Source: Mayamaea pseudoterrestris
Lineage: Eukaryota
Assembly (NCBI GenBank): GCA_027923505.1
Contig: BROI01000021.1
Location: forward strand, 62,001 to 126,000
DNA length: 64,000 nucleotides
Direction: 5' to 3'
Positions within the stretch are counted from its first letter, which is position 1. Each line of letters opens with the position of its first letter. The position numbers and the translations under genes were made by a program. Of the stretch, positions 996 through 12,615 are shown one piece after another. The notes beneath the pieces were generated by a model. It was not told where the DNA came from. It worked only from the letters and a program-made list of their open reading frames with translations, and ran no database searches.

Positions 996-1297
996 AGTCG
1001 AAACAATTAAGGTTCAGGCCCTGCCAGTGTCCGTTTGTTTCGGTTGATCCTCATGGCTGGATATCTGTTAATATCCAGTATCTGTGAATACTCAAGTTAC
1101 TTAAGCTACAGAAGCAAGCCGACGTTACCAACACGTCGGCAACGGTCCCCTTAAAGTAGCGGTAACAACTAAATCAAATCATTCTATTGCAAAGTACACG
1201 CAATCGTCTCGTTCCCCTTCTTCTTACCAAGCTAGTAGACTGATCATCTCCTACTTGACCAAGTCCTCAAGGTAACTCGACACAAGTTGCATTGATA
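996..1297 (+). repeat. copia 5' LTR (302 bp, AGTCG...TGATA)
   Basis: Identical by eye to 12309-12610. Confidence 0.95.
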
Positions 1298-1310
1298 GGT
1301 TATTCGTCCC
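1298..1310 (+). promoter_or_regulatory. Putative copia primer-binding site GGTTATTCGTCCC
   Basis: Immediately 3' of the 5' LTR. GGTTAT matches the start of the half-tRNA-iMet (anticodon-arm) type PBS of copia/Ty5-like elements, but only partially. Confidence 0.55.
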
Positions 1311-1363
1311 AATCACGCGCCCTACTGCCGCTACAAAATCTCGTTCTAGACCCCGAGAAAAGC

Positions 1364-3726
1364 ATGTCTACCGACAACAACAACGACACCGACACGGAGC
1401 AGTACTTCGACACTCCTCCTCCTAAACCCCGAGCTGGCTCTCCAACATCTGCTGCAGCTGATCTTGCCACGCTCATCACAGCTCTCAAGTCGATTCCATC
1501 CGACCAGCTTAAGATCCTCCTCCAAGCCGTCCAACCGACCGACGCGTCGTCGCCTGGAGACTCTCCTCCCAAGGATGAAACCTCTATTCCAACGGCCAAC
1601 GAATATGTTTCCCTCATTGGTGGTTACCTCGATGCCGAGCGCAAGATTGCCTTCTGTGGAGGCAAGCCGAATCTTGACTACACGCTCCCCCAAGTGCTCG
1701 AGGACGATCCGCTCGCCAAGCACATCCCCAAGACGCCAGCTTGCCACCGCGACCTCACCATGAAGCGTGCTGCTCAAGACTACGCCATTCGCATTGCTTT
1801 CAAGCCTTCAATTGGCAAGTTAGAGAAGGCCATGCCGATGTTCGCGTGGGGCGAGCTCATCCTTCGTGCGCTTGAAACGACTGGTGGCGATTCTGTCACT
1901 TACTCGCTGTCGAGAGACAACAAGACGCGCGTTAGTGTTTGTACCAACTTTGATGTACTCACGCTCGCTCACGTTATCGCTCAAAGCAAGAAGGATGTCG
2001 CCAATTGGCGTCCAATGGACCACGAGAACAGCTCGATGGCGATCGAGTTCGTGTTGAATCACTTGAGCACGGCGATCCAACAGATTGTCGAGCCTCGCCG
2101 AAAGGAAGATGATACCTTCGCCATCTTCTTTATGCGCATCGCTCAAGCCAACGCTGATCTCTCATACGAAGCTGCCGACAAGATGAAGGCAGAGCTCCGT
2201 GCTTACAAATTGACCGACGTTTCCTACCAAGACGTTCACCATTTTGGTGCCAAGTTCCTCAACACTGAGCGCCAGCTTCACAATGGCAAACGCTGGGATC
2301 ATGCGCTTGGATTGATCTTCATTAGAGAGCTCTCCAAGTGTCCATCGGAAGTTATGCGTGTAACGTTCATTGGCATTGGAGAACGGTACGACACTGCTCT
2401 TCGTGAAATCAATCCCCTCTCCTACGACGAGCAGCGCTCTCGCATGTTCAGTTTAAACGTTCATATCTCCCAGTTGGTTGAACGCGCTGACGATCTTTAC
2501 GCTCAGATCAAAGCAGTTGATGGAGGATGGCCTCCGCTTGTCAATATTGTCGACAAGAAAGCGCCCGATATCAACTCGTTGACGAAACTCAGCCACGCCG
2601 AGCAAGCTGCTCTCATCTCAAGCGGCCAAGTTGACATCAACAACCTCGTTCAATCCAAGGTCAAAGAACTTCGTACCAAGGACAAGAAGCAGTTGGAAGC
2701 TTACAAGAAGCGCTTCGCCAAGCAGTCGCCAACTGGCGACACCAAGGCTCCAAACACGACTCCTTCTAGCGATTCCTCCAAGACGACGGCCGCCGAAAAG
2801 CGAGCCGAACGCCCTCTTCCAGCATGGCGCACAAAGCCGCCTGCTGCAAACAATAAAGACGAAGTCAAGGAGGTTGGCAAGTACAAGTTCCAGTGGTGCG
2901 ACAAGTGCTCCAAGTGGGTGTGGAATCATACGTCTGTAGCAGGTATGCAACAGAAAGTAGTATCACTATGCCGTTAAAAGTAGCGCACCTCGGAATCGAA
3001 CCAAGGATAACCGGCTATATCACCTCTAAACACGCTGCTACTTTTCCGTCTGCTAGTGTACTATATGCTGCATACAAGGCACCATGCACTATGACAAGTA
3101 AAGGTATCGCTCTGGTTGCTGTTTTTCGTGTGCAACCTGCTACTCCCCTAGCTTTGCGCGTCATAGTGCTAACTCGTCTTCCGTTTCAGCTGGCATTTTC
3201 GTCTCGCGGGGGAATGTCACTTTTCAGTTTTTCCTGCGGCGTTTCGGGCTCGGCGCATCTTTGTGCACTCCCCAGGGTCCGCGACTCCCCATCGTTCGTT
3301 CGTGACAAACCCGTGCAACCAGTGAATTTTTGCTTTTTCTTCGCTTGATTCGATCGCAACTCGAACCAGCAGCCTCAGTCCAGATCTCTCGATAGGGACG
3401 CTACCATAGCAGGTATGCAACAGAAAGTAGTATCACTATGCCGTTAAAAGTAGCGCACCTCGGAATCGAACCAAGGATAACCGGCTATATCACCTCTAAA
3501 CACGCTGCTACTTTTCCGTCTGCTAGTGTACTATATGCTGCATACAAGGCACCATGCACTATGACAAGTAAAGGTATCGCTCTGGTTGCTGTTTTTCGTG
3601 TGCAACCTGCTATCTGCAACTCACAAATCCAAGTCGCCCGAGGCAAACAACTTCATCCTTGCCGACTCCGCCAACGTGTTTGAAGAATTCACCGACTACG
3701 CTCCCTTCGCTGACAGTCAGGAATGA
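1364..3726 (+). CDS. gag: copia Gag, interrupted at 2937-3616 by the TRIM
   Basis: ATG at 1364. Removing the TRIM plus one TSD copy restores ...WCDKCSKWVWNHTSATHKSK...DSQE* (TGA 3724-3726), with a basic C-terminal region and a zinc-knuckle-like motif. Confidence 0.8.
2937..3142 (-). repeat. TRIM 3' LTR (206 bp)
   Basis: Identical by eye to 3407-3612; terminal inverted repeat TAGCAGGT...ACCTGCTA. Confidence 0.92.
2976..3039 (-). ncRNA. tRNA-like Pol III cassette in the TRIM 3' LTR
   Basis: AGCAGCGTGTTTAGAGGTGATATAGCCGGTTATCCTTGGTTCGATTCCGAGGTGCGCTACTTTT: perfect B box GGTTCGATTCC in a T-arm hairpin, A-box-like TGTTTAGAGG, paired ends, T4 tail, no anticodon arm. Confidence 0.6.
3143..3149 (-). 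promoter_or_regulatory. TRIM polypurine tract AGGGGAG
   Basis: Plus-strand CTCCCCT abutting the LTR. Confidence 0.8.
3395..3406 (-). promoter_or_regulatory. TRIM primer-binding site TGGTAGCGTCCC
   Basis: Starts with TGG (anti-CCA) directly after the LTR; first 8 nt are the same as the yeast Ty1 tRNA-iMet PBS. Confidence 0.85.
3407..3612 (-). repeat. TRIM 5' LTR (206 bp)
   Basis: Identical by eye to 2937-3142; followed on the minus strand by the PBS. Confidence 0.92.
3446..3509 (-). ncRNA. tRNA-like Pol III cassette in the TRIM 5' LTR
   Basis: Identical copy of 2976-3039; B box at 3462-3472. Confidence 0.6.
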
Positions 3727-6219
3727 CTTGAATGCGGAAGGACGCCGCCTCTTCTTCTCTTTGTTCAAGCGTTTTGTTTCAAGACTGCCTTCGCCCGGTT
3801 CATCCTCAAGCCCGTCGCCGCCATGCTCCTCTTGGCTGCTCTGAGTATGCTTCCTACCGTTCTACCGGCCGTCCTTGAATCAGTTTGCGCTTGCGCATTG
3901 AGTGGACTTGCGCTCAATCAATGGTTCTGGTCTACGACTCTCGCCAACGCCTCTACGTTTGCCTGCACTGCGCTCAGCTTTTCGCGCGCTCCGCTCGCTC
4001 TTCCAACGTTTCTCCGCTGGTTTTGGTTTGAGTTACTCACGACTACGCTCGAGAGGGAGATGATGTTGCTGTGGATGACAGTTATCCTCGAAGCATTAGC
4101 TCTTTCCTATCACCTTTCTCCGAGTCGCCCGCAACCAACTAGAGACAAGCTCCGTCAAAAACAAAAACACTACGACAAACGCAAGAACTCTACTGACGAA
4201 CGTCAACTTTCCGTCCAATCAAAACGCCGCATTCGCCAACAGAAACGATTGAAAAGAACGCTCCGTGTCCCACTCATCTATAGCTATCACCGTTCCTATC
4301 CAACAAGATTGCGCAGCGACGGCATCTATCGTCAAAGAGTCCATTGCCCTCGTTTCGAGACCCTTCCAGACGCCAAGACTGTTCCCATTGAAGTCATTAA
4401 AGGGTACAATGGCTTGTTTACGACCCTCGTCGAGTCCAAGGCATGCCGATGGATCGACAATCCCATCTCCCAATTTAATTCCCTCGTCGAGTACCCCAGC
4501 CTCATGGATTACCTTGGCGCGCTCGCTCCACTCGAGTTCAACAACGTTACTTTCCAAGCAGACTCTACAGTCAATGACTTTGCCTTCTCTCCAAGCAATG
4601 CTGCACGATCCTCCACGTTCGAAATCATTCACGACAGCGGCGCTTCTGCAACCGTCGCCAATCACTTGGATGACTTCGTCCCTGGTACTTACCGCAAGAG
4701 CACAAAGAAGATCATTGCTAAAGGCCTCGCATCTGGATTGCAAGTAGTCGGCCATGGCATAATTGACTGGACCCTTGATGGCAACGATGGCAAGCCTCTA
4801 CGAGTCCGTTGTCAAGCTCTCTACATACCCGACAGTCCGCGCAAGTTACTGTGTCCCCAACAGTACACTCGATATCACAAGCTACACGATCGCGAGGCAA
4901 ATTTAACGTTTGCTATTAATGGAGAAGGATTCTGGTACTTTGATCTACACAAACAAGGACGCCCGTCCCTTCTTCACGGCTCGCTCGATCCAGTCACCAA
5001 CCTACCGACTTCTACAGCCATTGCAACTCAAGATAGTCCTGAAACCCTTCATGCTGAGTTTAATGCATGTGTAACAGACGCTCGAAACGCCAACTTGTCG
5101 CCCGCGCAAAAGCTCCTTCTTCAATGGCATTTCAAGTGCGGCCACGCCAGCTTCCGCAGCATTCAAAACCTTCTACGCTCTGGTCGCCTCGCTACAAGCG
5201 ATGAGATGCGCAAACTCCATAAAGCAGCAGCCTCCTGTGAGATCCCGCGGTGCGCTGCTTGCGAGTTTGGCAAGGCAAAACGGCGACCCGCGCCCGGAAC
5301 GAGTCGTCAACCAACGCCTCGAGCCGATGGATCGCTCAAGCAAGGAAAGCTTCGACCAGGACAACAAGTCTCCGTTGATCATTACATCTGCAGTCAAAAG
5401 GGACGCCTCTATACGTCTCGCGGCAAAACGTCGACCGACTCAATGTTCAGCGGTGGCGCGCTCTTTGTCGACCACGCAAGTGGATACGTCTTCGTCGACC
5501 ATCAAGTTGTTATGAACACTCATGAAACTCTTCGCTCCAAGTGGAACTTTGAAAAGGTTGCAAGGGATTGCGGCGTTTCAATTGAAAGCTACTTGTCTGA
5601 TAACGCTGCGTGTTTCACCAGTCACGAGTACACTGAGCATCTTTCCAAATTCAAGCAGACGACTGTCTTTGCAGGCGTCGGCGCCCATCATCAAAACGGA
5701 ATAGCAGAACGAAACATTCAAACCATTATGAACATGGCAAGAACGATGCTTATCCATGCTAACATGCATTGGACTGACGTTGATGACATGTCGCTCTGGC
5801 CGATGGCTGTCGACTTCGCAGTTTACATCTTCAATCGAATGCCAAACGTCGCCACTGGCCAAGCTCCCATTGATATCTTCACTGGTACCATCTGGGCAAG
5901 CCACAAGTTCCATCATCTCCACGTTTTTGGATCGCCCGCCTACGTTCTTGATCCTCGCATGCAAGACGGCAAGTCCATTCCTCGTTGGAAAGTGCGCTCA
6001 CGCCGCGGGATCTTTGTCGGCTTCTCCAGCAAGCACTCGGCTACAGTTCCTCTTGTCCTCAACTTGAATACATTAACCATCAGTCCTCAGTATCACGTTA
6101 CGCATGACGATTGGTTTACTACAGTTGACGCTCTTCCTGATTCGCCTCCAATTTCCGGTCGACAGATGGACGAGTCTCTTTGCGACAAGCAAGTACATGT
6201 ATCCGTTCGACGACGATGA
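3727..6219 (+). CDS. pol: copia Pol copy 1: hydrophobic/basic leader, protease, HHCC, integrase; frameshifts near 6155
   Basis: IIHDSGAS (protease); WHFKCGH...CAAC (IN zinc finger); VSVDH, LSDNA and NGIAER (DDE); RSRRGIFVG. Confidence 0.9.
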   Translation, partial: LECGRTPPLLLFVQAFCFKTAFARFILKPVAAMLLLAALSMLPTVLPAVLESVCACALSGLALNQWFWSTTLANASTFACTALSFSRAPLALPTFLRWFWFELLTTTLEREMMLLWMTVILEALALSYHLSPSRPQPTRDKLRQKQKHYDKRKNSTDERQLSVQSKRRIRQQKRLKRTLRVPLIYSYHRSYPTRLRSDGIYRQRVHCPRFETLPDAKTVPIEVIKGYNGLFTTLVESKACRWIDNPISQFNSLVEYPSLMDYLGALAPLEFNNVTFQADSTVNDFAFSPSNAARSSTFEIIHDSGASATVANHLDDFVPGTYRKSTKKIIAKGLASGLQVVGHGIIDWTLDGNDGKPLRVRCQALYIPDSPRKLLCPQQYTRYHKLHDREANLTFAINGEGFWYFDLHKQGRPSLLHGSLDPVTNLPTSTAIATQDSPETLHAEFNACVTDARNANLSPAQKLLLQWHFKCGHASFRSIQNLLRSGRLATSDEMRKLHKAAASCEIPRCAACEFGKAKRRPAPGTSRQPTPRADGSLKQGKLRPGQQVSVDHYICSQKGRLYTSRGKTSTDSMFSGGALFVDHASGYVFVDHQVVMNTHETLRSKWNFEKVARDCGVSIESYLSDNAACFTSHEYTEHLSKFKQTTVFAGVGAHHQNGIAERNIQTIMNMARTMLIHANMHWTDVDDMSLWPMAVDFAVYIFNRMPNVATGQAPIDIFTGTIWASHKFHHLHVFGSPAYVLDPRMQDGKSIPRWKVRSRRGIFVGFSSKHSATVPLVLNLNTLTISPQYHVTHDDWFTTVDALPDSPPISGRQMDESLCDKQVHVSVRRR

Positions 6220-7936
6220 CCCCCTTCCTGCTCTCAATCCTGAGTGGGAGGACAACTTTGATGCCTCAGCTGCTCGCCAAGATGCTATACATGCAGCACA
6301 GACTCCTTCCACCACTCCAGTTTTACCTGCTCCCGCCGCTCCGCCAGCGGTTGCTCCAGTTCCTTCCAATGATTCTCCGCCCGCCCAGGCGTCTCCGCCT
6401 CCGAATCAGAGGGCGACAAGGACTCCTGAAATTCATTAGCCTACAAGAAGCCGCAGAACCAACGCTTCAGAGGAGCAGAGGCGAGCATTTAGATCACATT
6501 GATGGCAATCCTTTGCGCTGCGTCTTACCTACACCGCGTGTCGCAGCCGATGTCACAGTCAATCACAGTCCACCAAACGCATCAAACGAGTCCACGATCC
6601 CGACGACAGCTCCCACGCTCGCACAACAACCACAACAACAAGCAGTGATCCTCCTTTACGACGCTCTGCGTTTACGTGATCGTCCTCCTGAGCCAGTCAT
6701 CACACGAGCTCAGAGACTCCGTCATGCTCGCGAGCAATGATTGAAACCAATATGCTGTTAGCAGAACATGCGCACGCGGAATGCCCTTACTCAATCGGTT
6801 TAACGCCAAAGTGCTACTCGCCTCGCCGAACGATCCCGGCACACTCCGCTACGATGAAGCGCGCGCTGATGACTCTGAAGAGTTCAGGAAAGCCGCAGGA
6901 ATAGAGATCAAGTCGCTCGAAGATCATGACCGTGAGTTCGTCATCCCAAGGACCGAGGTTCCTCAAGGAAAGCAAATCATCCGCGCATGGACCTTTCGCG
7001 CAGCGAAACGCCCGGTGGAGCTAAGAAACACAAGCTCGCTTCTGCGTTGAGAGACCTACAGAAGGCGTATTTGAAACGTTTGCACCAGTCGTTCAATGGA
7101 GCACCGTTCGTGTCCTCTGGTGTTCGCGCTTGGACGTTCGGCTACAAAACCAAATGCATTGATTTCACCAACGCGCTTTCGTTCAAGCAGAACTAAAGGA
7201 TCCAATCTACATTCAATTCCCACGCGGCTTTCAACACAAGGACGGTCATCAATCAAAGCGATTACTGTTTAAAGTTGCTCAGCGTGCTGCAGCGCAGCAA
7301 GATCGCCCCAAAGCTCTTCTCACGAACACTTCGCGACCGGCTCGTCGAGCTTCGGTTTCACTCAAGCTTCTTGTCCCTGTCTCTTCTACCCCGGACAAAT
7401 CTCGCGTTCTTGGCGTTGCATCTGCGTCGCCGTCCGAGAGCTGCAGACTCATCGGCGCCGCTCAAAGTTCCCGCTCACGAAGAAAGCGATTCAATTCTTG
7501 GCATTGATATAAAGCGCTCTGGCAAGTCTTTCCGCTCACTCAAACGGGTTTTGATCGACAGTATCATTCAGCTACTGGAATGGAGGCTGCTAACGAGTCT
7601 TCGCCCGCCAGCGATGCTCGGCAAGCCGCGATTTCCCGGATCATCAAGAGAGCTGCAGCCACATCTCGCTAATCGGCAACTTCTCCATCTGCTGGTATTC
7701 GCCCTACTTGCCTTTGCGGTCAGTCAATGCGCTCGATTCAATCACTGCCCTAAAAGCCACACTTTGCGCCGTTAGCCCTCGCTCCTTCTCATCAAGCTGC
7801 GAACAAGGACTCATCATGGCGCCAAGGTAACCTCACGGTTGCTGTTCGTTGTTTGCCGACTTTGCTGGTTTATATGGAGGAGGAAGACGTGTCAAGTCGT
7901 GTCGCTCGTCGCGTGCCGGACACCTCATCATGCTCG
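6150..7936 (+). pseudogene. Indel-riddled duplicate of the IN-RT linker, RT and start of RNaseH
   Basis: Collinear with ~9985-11843 but has many 1-few-bp indels that increase rightwards. Confidence 0.8.
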
Positions 7937-7938
7937 TT

Positions 7939-8578
7939 TAGCAGGTATATGCAACAGAGTAGTATGCCGTTAAAAGTAGCGCACCTCGAATCGAACCATC
8001 CACGTAAGGATAACCGATATTATATCAATTTAAACACGCTGCTACTTTTCCGTCTGCTAGTGTACTATATGCTGCATACAAGGCACCATGCACTATGACA
8101 AGTAAAGGTATCGTCTGGTTGCTGTTTTCGTGTGCAACCTGCCACTCCCTAGCTTTGCGTCATAGTGCTAACTTCCGTTTCAGCTGGCATTTTCAGCCCT
8201 GTGGGGAATGCTCACTTTTCAGTTTTTCCTGGCGTTTCGTCGGCGTCTTTTGTGCACTCCCCAGGGTCCGCGACTCCCCATCGTTCGTTCGTGACAAACC
8301 CGTGCAACCAGTGAATTTTTGCTTTTCTCTTCGCTTGATTCGATCGCAACTCGAACCAGCAGCCTCAACAGATCTTCTCGAAGGGACGCTACCATAGCAG
8401 GTATGCAACAGAAAGTAGTATCACTATGCCGTTAAAAGTAGCGCACCTCGGAATCCTGAACCAAGGATAACCGGTCATATCACCTCTAAACACGCTAAGT
8501 TTCTTCCAGTTCGCTAGTGTACTATGCTGCATTACAAGGCAACCATGCACAAAGTAAAGGTATCGTGCTGTTGTTTTT
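7939..8578 (-). mobile_element. Second, error-rich copy of the TRIM
   Basis: TAGCAGGT starts at 7939 and 8395; same internal sequence and PBS (GGGACGCTACCA); many indels; no clear TSD. Confidence 0.8.
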
Positions 8579-8584
8579 CACTGT

Positions 8585-9060
8585 AAAAGAGTCCATTGCC
8601 CTCGTTTCGAGACCCTTTCCAGACGCCAAGACTGTTCCCATTGAAGTCATTTCCCTGGTACTTACCGCAAGAGCACAAAGAAGATCATTGCTAAAGGCCT
8701 CGCATCTGGATTGCAAGTGAATGGCCATGGCATAATTGACTGGACCCGATTGGCAACGATGGCAAGCCTCTACGAGTCCGTTGTCAAGCTCTCTACATAC
8801 CCGACAGTCCGCGCGCGTTACTTTCCATACACTCATTCAACTCACCACGACAAATTTAACGTTTGCTATTAATGGAGAAGGATTCTGGTACTTTGATCTA
8901 CACAAACAAGGACGCCCGTCCCTCTTCACGGCTCGACCATCCAGTCACCAACCTACCGACTTCTACAGCCATTGCAACTCAAGATAGTCCTGAAACCCTT
9001 CATGCTGAGTTTAATGCATGTGTAACAGACGCTCGAAACGCCAACTTGTCGCCGCGCATT
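8585..9060 (+). pseudogene. Deleted and scrambled fragments of the protease region
   Basis: Blocks match ~4335-4400, ~4680-4840 and ~4900-5107. Confidence 0.75.
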
Positions 9061-9370
9061 TCATTTAAGCGCGCCACGCAGCTTCCACACAGCTCTTCAA
9101 ACATTCACGCTTTCCTCCATCGATGACCGCTGCATGCAAACCCATATAGCAGCAGCACCTCTCTTGTCGTGGTGGCCTTGGCGCGCGTGGGCGAGTCGTA
9201 CCCCTTCTCCCGCTCTTGGTCGCTCTGCCCGAGCTTTCGCGCCCCCCATCCGCACGGGAGTCGTGGGTTAATCCCTGCAGAATGGTTCGCGTTTCTCTTT
9301 TGCTCGTTCTTCGGCTGATGGAGTATAAAAAGCCGATGCAGCTCGTCCAGCTTTCTTTTTCAGCTGCCTT

Positions 9371-12250
9371 TCCAAGTGGAACTTTGAAAAGGTTGCAAGG
9401 GATTGCGGCGTTTCAATTGAAAGCTACTTGTCTGATAACGCTGCGTGTTTCACCAGTCACGAGTACACTGAGCATCTTTCCAAATTCAAGCAGACGACTG
9501 TCTTTGCAGGCGTCGGCGCCCATCATCAAAACGGAATAGCAGAACGAAACATTCAAACCATTATGAACATGGCAAGAACGATGCTTATCCATGCTAACAT
9601 GCATTGGACTGACGTTGATGACATGTCGCTCTGGCCGATGGCTGTCGACTACGCAGTTTACATCTTCAATCGAATGCCAAACGTCGCCACTGGCCAAGCT
9701 CCCATTGATATCTTCACTGGTACCATCTGGGCAAGCCACAAGTTCCATCATCTCCACGTTTTTGGATCGCCCGCCTACGTTCTTGATCCTCGCATGCAAG
9801 ACGGCAAGTCCATTCCTCGTTGGAAAGTGCGCTCACGCCGCGGGATCTTTGTCGGCTTCTCCAGCAAGCACTCGGCTACAGTTCCTCTTGTCCTCAACTT
9901 GAATACATTAACCATCAGTCCTCAGTATCACGTTACGCATGACGATTGGTTTACTACAGTTGACGCTCTTCCTGATTCGCCTCCAAATTTTACGGACGAC
10001 AGATGGACGAGTCTCTTTGCGACAAGCAAGTACATGTATCCGTTCGACGACGATGACCCCCTTCCTGCTCTCAATCCTGAGTGGGAGGACAACTTTGATG
10101 CCTCAGCTGCTCGCCAAGATGCTATACATGCAGCACAGACTCCTTCCACCACTCCAGTTTTACCTGCTCCCGCCGCTCCGCCAGCGGTTGCTCCAGTTCC
10201 TTCCAATGATTCTCCGCCCGCCACAGGCGCTCCGCCTCCGAATCAGAGGGCGACAAGGACTCCTGAAATTCATTCGCCTACAGAAGCCACAGAACCAACG
10301 CTTCAGAGGGAGCAGAGGGAGCATTTAGATCACATTGATGGCAATCCTTTGCGCTCGTCCGCACCTACACCGCGTGTCGCAGCCGATGTCACAGTCAATC
10401 CCAGTCCACCAAACGCATCAAACGAGTCCACGATCCCGACGACAGCTCCCACGCTCGCACAACAACCACAACAACAAGCAAGTGATCCTCCTTTACGACG
10501 CTCTGCACGTTTACGTGATCGTCCTCCTGAGCCAGTCATCACACGAGCTCAGAGACTCCGTCATGCTCGCGACGAAATGATTGAAACCAATATGCTGTTA
10601 GCAGAGCATGCGCACGCGGAATACCCTTACTCAATCGGTTTAACGCAAGTGCTACTCGCCTCGACGAACGATCCCGACACACTCCGCTACGATGAAGCGA
10701 TGCGCGCTGATGACTCTGAAGAGTTCAGGAAAGCCGCAGGAATAGAGATCAAGTCGCTCGAAGATCATGGCACGTGGGTCGTCATCCCAAGGACCGAGGT
10801 TCCTCAAGGAAAGCAAATCATCCCCGGCACATGGACCTTTCGCCGCAAGCGAACGCCCAGCGGTGAGCTTAAGAAACACAAAGCTCGCTTCTGCGTTCGA
10901 GGAGACCTACAGAAGGACGTATTTGAAACGTTTGCACCAGTCGTTCAATGGAGCACCGTTCGTGTCCTCATGGTATTCGCCTTGACGTTCGGCTACAAAA
11001 CCAAATGCATTGATTTCACCAACGCTTTCGTTCAAGCAGAACTAAAGGATCCAATCTACATTCAATTCCCACGCGGCTTTCAACACAAAGACGGTCATCA
11101 ATCAAGCGATTACTGTTTAAAGTTGCTCAAGTCGTGCTACGGAACGAAGATCGCCCCAAAGCTCTTCTACGAACACTTACGCGACCGACTCGTCGAGCTC
11201 GGTTTCACTCAAAGCTTCTTCGATCCCTGTCTCTTCTACCGCAATGGACAAATCATCGCCTGTTACGTTGACGATTGCATCTGCGTCGCCCGTACCGACA
11301 AGGAGCTGCAGACCATCATCGACGACCTTCGCTCAAAGTTCACGCTCACCGAAGAAGGCGATCTCAGTCAATATCTTGGCATTGATATAAAGCGCTCTGG
11401 CAAGTCTTTCACGCTCACTCAAACGGGTTTGATCGACAGTATCATTCAAGCTACTGGAATGGAGGCTGCTAACGGAGTCTTCACGCCCGCCAACGACACG
11501 CTCGGCAAGAACGCCGATTTACCGGATCATCAAGAGAGCTGGAGCTACAACTCGCTAATCGGCAAGCTTCTCTATCTCGCTGGTAACTCACGCCCTGACA
11601 TTGCCTTTGCAGTCAATCAATGCGCTCGATTCAATCACTGCCCTAAAAAGCCACACTTTGACGCCGTTAAACGCATCGTCCGCTATCTCATCAAGACTCG
11701 CGAACAAGGACTCATCATGACGCCCGAAGGTAACCTCACGGTTGACTGTTACGTTGATGCCGACTTTGCTGGTTTATATGGAAAGGAAGACGGTCAAGAT
11801 CCAGTGTGCGCTCAGTCCCGTACCGGATACCTCATCATGCTCGGTGGCTGCCCCGTCTTTTGGCAAAGCAAGCTACAAACCGAAATCGCTCTATCTACAA
11901 TGGAATCCGAGTACGTTGCCCTCTCTTCAAGCCTTCGCCAAGTCATTCCTATCCAAGCAATCGTCAAGGAAATGGGAAACAAAATGAAGCAACGCATCCA
12001 AGTTAACGCGCGCTCCTACTGCACCGTTTACGAAGATAACGCAGGCTGCCTTGCGCTCGCCAATGCCCCTCATCTTACGCCTCGCTCTCGCCATTACGCT
12101 ACTAAGTATCACCACTTTAAGCACCACGTAAAGCAGGGCACGATCAAAGTCGTTAAGATTGACACCAAGGAGCAACGAGCGGATATCTTTACAAAGGCGC
12201 TGCCCCAAGTCACATTCGAGCACCTCCGCCGTCTCCTTATGGGATGGTAA
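9371..12250 (+). CDS. pol: copia Pol copy 2: integrase core, RT and RNaseH in an intact frame
   Basis: RFCVRGDLQ, TFAPVV, DFTNAFVQA, YVDD, YVDADFAG, IALSTMESEY, EDNAG, QRADIFTK; stop at 12250. Confidence 0.95.
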   Translation, partial: SKWNFEKVARDCGVSIESYLSDNAACFTSHEYTEHLSKFKQTTVFAGVGAHHQNGIAERNIQTIMNMARTMLIHANMHWTDVDDMSLWPMAVDYAVYIFNRMPNVATGQAPIDIFTGTIWASHKFHHLHVFGSPAYVLDPRMQDGKSIPRWKVRSRRGIFVGFSSKHSATVPLVLNLNTLTISPQYHVTHDDWFTTVDALPDSPPNFTDDRWTSLFATSKYMYPFDDDDPLPALNPEWEDNFDASAARQDAIHAAQTPSTTPVLPAPAAPPAVAPVPSNDSPPATGAPPPNQRATRTPEIHSPTEATEPTLQREQREHLDHIDGNPLRSSAPTPRVAADVTVNPSPPNASNESTIPTTAPTLAQQPQQQASDPPLRRSARLRDRPPEPVITRAQRLRHARDEMIETNMLLAEHAHAEYPYSIGLTQVLLASTNDPDTLRYDEAMRADDSEEFRKAAGIEIKSLEDHGTWVVIPRTEVPQGKQIIPGTWTFRRKRTPSGELKKHKARFCVRGDLQKDVFETFAPVVQWSTVRVLMVFALTFGYKTKCIDFTNAFVQAELKDPIYIQFPRGFQHKDGHQSSDYCLKLLKSCYGTKIAPKLFYEHLRDRLVELGFTQSFFDPCLFYRNGQIIACYVDDCICVARTDKELQTIIDDLRSKFTLTEEGDLSQYLGIDIKRSGKSFTLTQTGLIDSIIQATGMEAANGVFTPANDTLGKNADLPDHQESWSYNSLIGKLLYLAGNSRPDIAFAVNQCARFNHCPKKPHFDAVKRIVRYLIKTREQGLIMTPEGNLTVDCYVDADFAGLYGKEDGQDPVCAQSRTGYLIMLGGCPVFWQSKLQTEIALSTMESEYVALSSSLRQVIPIQAIVKEMGNKMKQRIQVNARSYCTVYEDNAGCLALANAPHLTPRSRHYATKYHHFKHHVKQGTIKVVKIDTKEQRADIFTKALPQVTFEHLRRLLMGW

Positions 12251-12300
12251 AGTTGCTCATCTTCTCTGTTATTTGTCTCTATGTCTATAACATCGATCCA

Positions 12301-12308
12301 AGAGGGAG
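12301..12308 (+). promoter_or_regulatory. copia polypurine tract AGAGGGAG
   Basis: Purine run directly before the 3' LTR. Confidence 0.8.
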
Positions 12309-12610
12309 AGTCGAAACAATTAAGGTTCAGGCCCTGCCAGTGTCCGTTTGTTTCGGTTGATCCTCATGGCTGGATATCTGTTAATATCCAGTATCTGTGA
12401 ATACTCAAGTTACTTAAGCTACAGAAGCAAGCCGACGTTACCAACACGTCGGCAACGGTCCCCTTAAAGTAGCGGTAACAACTAAATCAAATCATTCTAT
12501 TGCAAAGTACACGCAATCGTCTCGTTCCCCTTCTTCTTACCAAGCTAGTAGACTGATCATCTCCTACTTGACCAAGTCCTCAAGGTAACTCGACACAAGT
12601 TGCATTGATA
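12309..12610 (+). repeat. copia 3' LTR (302 bp)
   Basis: Identical by eye to 996-1297; preceded by a purine tract and followed by the TSD GTCTC. Confidence 0.95.
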
Positions 12611-12615
12611 GTCTC

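Follow-up and report, generated by a model that had tools for sequence, protein, structure and literature searches.

We analysed a 64,000-nt stretch of the genome of Mayamaea pseudoterrestris (GenBank assembly GCA_027923505.1, contig BROI01000021.1, positions 62,001 to 126,000 of the forward strand; hereafter the window, with positions counted from its first base) and describe here a short insertion, copy A, that lies within a Copia-type retrotransposon and is almost certainly a miniature terminal-repeat retrotransposon (TRIM). Copy A has two long terminal repeats (LTRs) of 206 nt each, 100% identical and starting 470 nt apart, around an internal domain of 264 bp (206 + 264 + 206 = 676 bp in total), that is, two short LTRs and a short non-coding core within less than 1 kb, as in a TRIM; no Pfam domain was found in the reading frames that run into it. 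On the minus strand, a primer-binding site (PBS, TGGTAGCGTCCC) follows the 5' LTR and a polypurine tract (PPT) precedes the 3' LTR, and from these positions we took the minus strand as the sense strand. With up to one mismatch, this PBS occurs in the window only at copy A and at a second, older copy, copy B (2 matches vs 0.07 expected), and AAAGCTAGGGGAG directly precedes the 3' LTR in sense orientation, with AGGGGAG adjoining the LTR on the minus strand. TCTG stands on either side of the element, and a 215-letter contig from a public run (X5) joins 2932 to 3613 without extra letters, so leaving out 680 bases; 4 letters at the junction could belong to either flank. Hence, this empty-site contig identifies the 676-bp element as a true insertion with a 4-bp target-site duplication (TSD), polymorphic in its presence and with a duplication in the 4-6 bp range of TRIMs. 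We found no 5S rRNA match in 2800-3750 (Rfam, E<=10), as would mark Cassandra or Ajax, and no hammerhead ribozyme (Rfam, E<=10), as would mark a retrozyme; the LTRs, PBS and PPT are all present, whereas a tRNA-derived short interspersed nuclear element (SINE) has no LTRs and ends in a tail of the type of long interspersed nuclear elements (LINEs). We conclude that copy A is a young, apparently recently mobile, non-autonomous LTR retrotransposon of a pennate diatom.

Table 1. Features of TRIM copy A, of TRIM copy B and of the Copia-type element that holds them (positions in the window).
Feature	Position	Strand	Basis
Host Copia-type element holding both TRIM copies	996..12611	+	303-bp identical LTRs, TSD TCTC, domains
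TSD TCTG, left copy	2933..2936	.	sequence; X5 empty-site contig
3' LTR of copy A, 206 bp, termini TAGCAGG...CCTGCTA	2937..3142	-	100% identity to 3407-3612; orientation inferred from PBS and PPT
T4 run, 1 nt past discriminator of tRNA-like module (3' LTR)	2976..2979	-	sequence
tRNA-like module in 3' LTR, 83 nt, long variable arm	2980..3062	-	ARAGORN at 98% of default threshold, none at default
B box GGTTCGATTCC (3' LTR)	2992..3002	-	motif scan
A box TAGCAGACGG (3' LTR)	3046..3055	-	read in register of ARAGORN model
PPT region, sense AAAGCTAGGGGAG, immediately upstream of 3' LTR	3143..3155	-	last internal-domain bases, sense
Internal domain, 264 bp, non-coding	3143..3406	-	89% identity to 8147-8394 of copy B
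PBS TGGTAGCGTCCC, abuts 5' LTR	3395..3406	-	2 window matches vs 0.07 expected
5' LTR of copy A	3407..3612	-	100% identity to 3' LTR
T4 run after tRNA-like module (5' LTR)	3446..3449	-	sequence
tRNA-like module in 5' LTR	3450..3532	-	ARAGORN, relaxed threshold
B box (5' LTR)	3462..3472	-	motif scan
A box TAGCAGACGG (5' LTR)	3516..3525	-	sequence, ARAGORN register
TSD TCTG, right copy	3613..3616	.	sequence; X5 empty-site contig
TRIM copy B, old, decayed; 5' LTR (sense) cut off at outer end; B box broken in both LTRs	7939..8577	-	

Each LTR of copy A carries a tRNA-like module in sense orientation, found by a motif scan as well as by ARAGORN. The B box GGTTCGATTCC, scanned for with the consensus GGTTCGANTCC, occurs in the window only in the two LTRs, on the minus strand (2 matches vs 0.11 expected from 100 shuffles); because the LTRs are copies of each other, these matches count as one event, with a chance of about 1 in 10 per window when taken alone. 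Read directly, the T stem is CTTGG/CCGAG with one G.U pair, its loop is TTCGATT, and the pairing AAAAGTAGC/GCTACTTTT is present as well. At 95% of its default threshold, ARAGORN returned 2 matches in the window, one in each LTR (c[2980,3062] and c[3450,3532]), and the LTR call was kept at 98% of the threshold and lost at 99%. The background amounted to 8 matches at 95% and 1 at 98% in 150 dinucleotide-preserving shuffles of the whole window, and to 0 matches in 10 mononucleotide shuffles. The resulting model is an 83-nt cloverleaf (LTR sense 81-163) with a long variable arm, in which the acceptor AGTACAC/GTGCGCT is paired at 6 of 7 positions, one of them G.U, and T8 and A9 are followed by a D stem GCAG/TAGC (one mismatch, one G.U) with the loop ACGGAAAAG. 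The anticodon arm is degenerate, having a stem with one mismatch and two G.U pairs and a loop of 8 nt, and the variable arm comprises 4 bp, while the 3' part consists of a perfect T-arm, the discriminator A, a C and TTTT. In this register, the A box TAGCAGACGG lies at LTR sense 88-97, and the A and B boxes stand 53 nt apart from start to start, as in long-arm tRNAs.

Much of this had been proposed by an earlier sequence-only reading of the window. The TRIM was confirmed by its identical LTRs, PBS, PPT, 4-bp TSD and empty site; also confirmed were a string at LTR sense 104-163 followed by TTTT at 164-167 (with starts at 3509 and 3039), a perfect B box in a T-arm, an extended end pairing, a module with A box, B box and T4 in sense orientation, and a diatom as the host. 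The details of the fold had to be redrawn. A 62-nt register with the acceptor GTAGC/GCTAC and no anticodon arm was rejected in favour of the 83-nt one, because only a 3' acceptor strand that comes immediately after the T stem agrees with real tRNAs, and the 83-nt register has this arrangement. The cloverleaf of the ARAGORN model starts 23 nt further upstream (sense 81, AGTACAC) than had been read, and the anticodon arm, which had been called missing, is there in degenerate form. An A box does exist, but what had been taken for the 5' acceptor and D region is the 3' strand of the D stem together with this anticodon arm, and the motif CATATAG, placed about 25 nt upstream, is indeed present (LTR sense 76-82) but abuts the 5' end of the module.

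Upon applying standard detectors, we obtained results that speak against a tRNA reading. ARAGORN at default settings reported 0 tRNAs in the window or in the LTR alone, the Rfam tRNA model gave no match at E<=10 on 951, 91 or 108 bases, and the 83-nt RNA folded at -17.2 kcal/mol (z +0.89), with 166 of 200 shuffles folding at least as well. The leader running from the module through the unique 5' region (U5) to the PBS had no special stability (z -0.52; 60 of 200 shuffles as good). Three other Rfam candidates scored far below their gathering thresholds and were read as chance, namely sno_ncR3 (16.4 bits, gathering 88), mir-728 (15.2, gathering 70) and RMST_1 (14.3, gathering 40). With silent detectors, an unstable fold, an 8-nt anticodon loop and 3 stem mismatches, this is not a functional tRNA gene, and we read the module as a decayed tRNA copy that keeps promoter boxes and not as a working tRNA; that it derives from a tRNA at all we consider very probable. 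The parts relevant to RNA polymerase III (Pol III) are intact in copy A, with 11 of 11 positions of the B box, the specified positions of the A box and a T run 1 nt past the discriminator. An origin of the module from an initiator tRNA was provisionally rejected as well: A1:U72, A73 and a 3' end like the yeast initiator-tRNA probe point to it, but it is at odds with the T-loop, with the length of the variable arm and with the lack of a CAT anticodon.

The match between the 3' end of the module and the PBS is one feature that sets the diatom element apart. When the module is trimmed after the discriminator and CCA is added, its last 12 nt face the PBS with 10 Watson-Crick pairs, 1 G.U pair and 1 mismatch. 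Only the PBSs of the two TRIMs pair this well among the 127,976 12-mers of the window (both strands), and the same two stand alone among its 2,258 12-mers that start with TGG. On the simplest reading of this match, the module would be a descendant of the primer tRNA or of another tRNA whose acceptor end is similar. As for the primer, the first 8 nt of the PBS (TGGTAGCG) equal the start of a yeast initiator-tRNA probe, TGGTAGCGCC, and the primers that start at Ty1 nt 335 and Ty2 nt 333 also begin with TGGTAGCGCC, both according to excerpts of the yeast literature; these 8 nt suggest a primer tRNA ending in CGCUACCA, as the yeast initiator tRNA does. Searching literature text for the candidate tRNA 3' ends, both strings, gave unrelated matches only.

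TRIMs whose LTRs carry sequence derived from tRNAs have been defined as Helenus (Kojima 2024, PMC10886601), so that the sequence-only reading erred in supposing that such an element had not been described. Helenus is recorded from fungi, six animal phyla and the lycophyte Selaginella, its tRNA sequences having been detected by Censor against tRNA/SINE2 and by tRNAscan-SE, and the term TRIMp3 was proposed for Helenus, Cassandra and Ajax together (PMC10886601). The main text of that survey has 0 mentions of diatoms, stramenopiles or oomycetes; no diatom case of Helenus or a TRIM is evident in the titles or abstracts of the papers listed for Helenus, for diatom TRIMs and for diatom non-autonomous LTR elements with tRNA; and a 2025 preprint on diatom transposable elements leaves tRNA and SINE unmentioned, with 'TRIM' matching only the program TrimAl. 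The element described here is probably a new lineage, in diatoms, of the Helenus/TRIMp3 type, a kind in print since 2024. It resembles Helenus in the TRIM format (<1 kb, two LTRs, PBS, PPT, TSD of 4-6 bp), in a probably tRNA-derived sequence in each LTR that is unlikely to be a working tRNA, with A and B boxes that are conserved in Helenus, and in depending presumably on a helper, Copia or Gypsy, with a different LTR body. Measured against the Helenus boxes (TRGCY followed by YGG; GGTTC), it reads TAGCA, 4 of 5, then CGG, and has the B box GGTTCGATTCC. The tRNA homology is fainter, in that the diatom element was called by ARAGORN at 98% of the threshold only, with no match to the Rfam tRNA model, and its module is weaker than many Helenus modules, there being no default tRNA call. 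Furthermore, Copia-dependent fungal Helenus have a 5-bp TSD, whereas that of the diatom element is 4 bp, as in diatom Copia, and complementarity between LTR and PBS was found in no Helenus (PMC10886601), whereas the diatom module pairs at 11 of 12 positions after addition of CCA. Taken jointly, the statement that a diatom TRIM lies in a Copia gag, holds a decayed tRNA copy in each LTR and is a counterpart of Helenus/TRIMp3 is one that we hold with moderate confidence.

Other known systems resemble the element in part. Cassandra, a plant TRIM with 5S rRNA in its LTRs, is likewise non-autonomous; each LTR contains a small-RNA gene that has a terminator and is driven by an internal Pol III promoter, and its transcripts run from the 5' LTR to the 3' LTR (Kalendar 2008, as cited in PMC10886601 and PMC13570524). 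Its promoter is, however, of the 5S type (type 1) and its transcription was shown by experiment, whereas the putative promoter of the diatom element would be of the tRNA type (type 2). Cassandra is also reported to track changes in 5S genes (Maiwald 2024). SINE2 elements are non-autonomous retroelements too, and in their decayed tRNA head the A and B boxes persist and serve as internal Pol III promoter, but they are without LTRs, PBS and PPT and use LINE machinery, whereas the diatom element has all three together with a 4-bp TSD. The PBS of Ty1 and Ty2 starts with TGGTAGCG too, again the complement of the yeast initiator tRNA in the excerpts at hand, and the diatom Copia element Blackbeard, of the CoDi group, makes a 4-bp TSD, TTCC, the same length as in the TRIM and its host Copia (PMC2806351, in excerpt); unlike the diatom TRIM, Ty1, Ty2 and CoDi elements are autonomous and have no tRNA-like module in the LTR.

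The host Copia element encodes gag-pre-integrase, SH3_retrovirus and RVT_2 domains, and copy A is inserted in its gag, breaking the gag frame. The TRIM LTR has no similarity to the host Copia LTR (blastn, word size 7, E<=10). We propose that copy A would be copied in trans by a Copia-type (CoDi-like) element, as suggested by the 4-bp TSD, which is that of the host Copia and of Blackbeard, by the similar PPT ends (AGAGGGAG in the host Copia) and by a contig of about 6 kb that has an LTR end and a PBS. Contigs of this kind, 5.4-6.3 kb long, were found in runs X1, X3, X4 and X5; they match the TRIM only in 3396-3431, with 4 other letters in 36, that is, in the PBS and the last ~25 nt of the LTR, and run on unlike it, without a tRNA-like module. 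From their sequence they are a candidate autonomous partner.

Several further observations concern the host element and its surroundings. It is a composite, in which 4331-7936 recurs at 8583-11843 with 91-97% identity in three pieces, and the duplicated segments are joined through copy B, a TRIM that has lost its outer end; identity between the outer 303-bp LTRs is nevertheless 100%, and the TCTC duplication lies on both of their outer sides, so that the 11.6-kb composite apparently moved as a whole. When the TRIM and one TSD copy are removed, the gag frame (1259-2936 plus 3617-3726) ends at TGA 3724-3726, which by hand frame arithmetic is in frame with the pol frame 3727-6219, an in-frame gag/pol stop. 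The sequence after the 5' LTR of the host Copia (1299-1320, GTTATTCGTCCCAATC) does not start with TGG but has CGTCCC(A/T)ATC in common with the leader of the TRIM (TGGTAGCGTCCCTATC), and may represent a PBS of a related kind or of the internal-tRNA kind. Elsewhere, the window has densely packed genes with few introns, and its geranylgeranyltransferase beta subunit, with raphid pennate diatoms as its nearest named relatives (Amphora 60%, Seminavis 59%, Epithemia and Fistulifera 49%), agrees with the diatom host mentioned above.

Further copies allow a limited view of conservation, as the boxes were seen in three sources only, copy A, copy B and one LTR fragment, and all but copy A are dead copies. 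Copy B is 87-89% identical to copy A, with many indels. When the LTR of copy A was placed in a three-way alignment with those of copy B, the latter two shared a difference from A in only 5 of 215 columns, every other difference being private to one LTR of B; hence, the ancestor of copy B hardly differed from A, and the two copies offer no divergence for a test of selection. Within the module (92 columns), 12 differences are private to the 5' LTR of B and 17 to its 3' LTR, and in 3 columns all three sequences differ. AGTACACTAGC and GAGGTGCGCTACTTTTAACGGC are the same in all three aligned LTRs, and the start of the A box, TAGC, is retained in both LTRs of copy B. A third LTR was seen in a 151-letter contig of run X1, on 3406-3532, which has a different flank, low depth and 14 changes in 127 nt, mostly towards A/T. 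Scanning metagenomes, we found 0 matches to a 22-mer common to all four LTRs and 1 match to a 19-mer of LTR end plus PBS, in a GC-rich bacterial contig without other likeness, which we took as chance. Run X5 also yielded a 453-letter contig that runs from the internal end through an LTR into the internal start, at a depth of 871 vs 4.4 for the empty-site contig; this depth could come from tandem arrays, many copies or RNA. X5 further contains variants with long T runs at 3327-3348. In X1, X3 and X4, the depth of the TRIM contig is about equal to that of a long contig; we did not read these depths as copy numbers.

An internal Pol III unit needs intact A and B boxes together with a T run, which here lies one base past the discriminator. 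As we hypothesize, the module would act as an internal Pol III promoter from which transcripts start near 3532 in the 5' LTR; some of them would pass the first T4 and end at the T4 run in the 3' LTR (2976-2979). The tRNA-like stretch would then form the terminal redundancy R, of about 86 nt, leaving about 80 nt for the unique 3' region (U3) and about 40 nt for U5. Judging from these motifs, the module may be a functional Pol III promoter, a view that we hold tentatively and with slightly more doubt than confidence. Besides the detector results above, several points weigh against it. Because a T4 directly follows the module, Pol III would mostly yield an RNA of ~85 nt, and a full-length template would need read-through. 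Between the two terminators (466 nt, sense), we counted 0 T4 runs vs 0.6-0.85 expected, a depletion that is not significant (P 0.37-0.53). The A box has an A where Helenus has Y (TAGCA vs TRGCY), and CATATAG could equally be a TATA box of RNA polymerase II (Pol II). Lastly, the tRNA-like segment of copy B is no better kept than the rest of its LTR, both LTRs of copy B have a broken B box (one bears a 2-nt insertion, the other an 8-nt insertion plus a deletion), and the changes in the X1 fragment include 2 in the B box and 2 in the T4 run. Within the same 466 nt (2980-3445, minus strand), we also noticed 7 runs of A4+ vs ~2.5 expected (P about 0.001-0.003), and no T4, which makes the two strands asymmetric.

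These same points could be accommodated by a tRNA-derived relic that has no promoter role, the template RNA of the element arising from Pol II transcription that starts in the LTR or that runs on from the host Copia. Transcription would in the former case start ~25-30 nt downstream of the TATA-like CATATAG, and the module would be a passenger or only a piece of R/U5. This alternative, which we consider somewhat unlikely, draws on the lack of a call by Rfam or by ARAGORN at default, the lack of a stable fold, the T4 that would stop Pol III early, the insignificant depletion of T runs, the free decay of the module in copy B and the very small number of copies (2 in the window plus 1 LTR fragment). 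It sits less well with the sole young copy, in which the Pol III parts are intact alongside 3 mismatches in the stems and an anticodon loop of 8 nt, and boxes kept amid such decay are the pattern reported for Helenus and SINEs (PMC10886601). The module also stands in sense orientation.

A chance resemblance, in which the LTR of an ordinary TRIM is not derived from a tRNA and its B-box-like 11-mer and pairings are accidental, appears very unlikely to us. A B-box match is indeed expected 0.11 times per window, the Rfam tRNA model is silent and the feature was chosen after a reading of 64 kb; against these considerations, the ARAGORN call at 98% has a background of 1 in 150 shuffled windows, the module lies inside the LTR in sense orientation with a T4 1 nt past its discriminator, and the fit between its 3' end and the element's PBS is equalled by no other 12-mer of the window.

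The PBS match, with its 10 Watson-Crick pairs and 1 G.U pair of 12, unique among the window's 12-mers, also invites the idea of self-priming, in which Pol III-made module RNA, trimmed after the discriminator A and given CCA, would anneal to its own PBS as the primer in place of a cellular tRNA. With 6 of 7 pairs in its acceptor stem and a perfect T-arm, the module could form a minihelix, a shape that tRNA 3'-end enzymes recognise. We nevertheless regard self-priming as highly improbable: since the PBS is partly inherited from the primer, a self-primed family should drift to a perfect match, whereas the PBS has retained TC in copy A as well as in copy B, at positions for which the module calls for CA; the ~6-kb contig carries the PBS without a module, so that a cellular primer is the simpler reading; and Kojima found no such link in any Helenus (PMC10886601). 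Hardly more probable is the wider notion of a module that is more than a borrowed promoter, namely a copied form of the primer tRNA that the element uses and perhaps the source of the primer, which would make this a retrotransposon with its own primer gene. A milder version of that notion concerns the origin only: reverse transcriptase would have changed templates to the packaged primer tRNA and so taken up the module, a route other than that of a SINE inserted into an LTR, which was proposed for Cassandra, Helenus and Ajax.

Overall, we favor the reading of copy A as a diatom TRIM with a decayed, tRNA-derived module in each LTR. If true, TRIMs with tRNA-derived LTRs would extend to diatoms, a supergroup absent from the 2024 survey, and the diatom case would support repeated independent origins of this design. 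Such tRNA-like LTR modules would also be a source of false tRNA-like matches in diatom genomes, and the small, apparently recently mobile element is suited to probing Pol III-driven LTR retrotransposition, while the match between the 3' end of the module and the PBS offers a concrete handle on the origin of the module, by capture of a primer tRNA or by insertion of a SINE.

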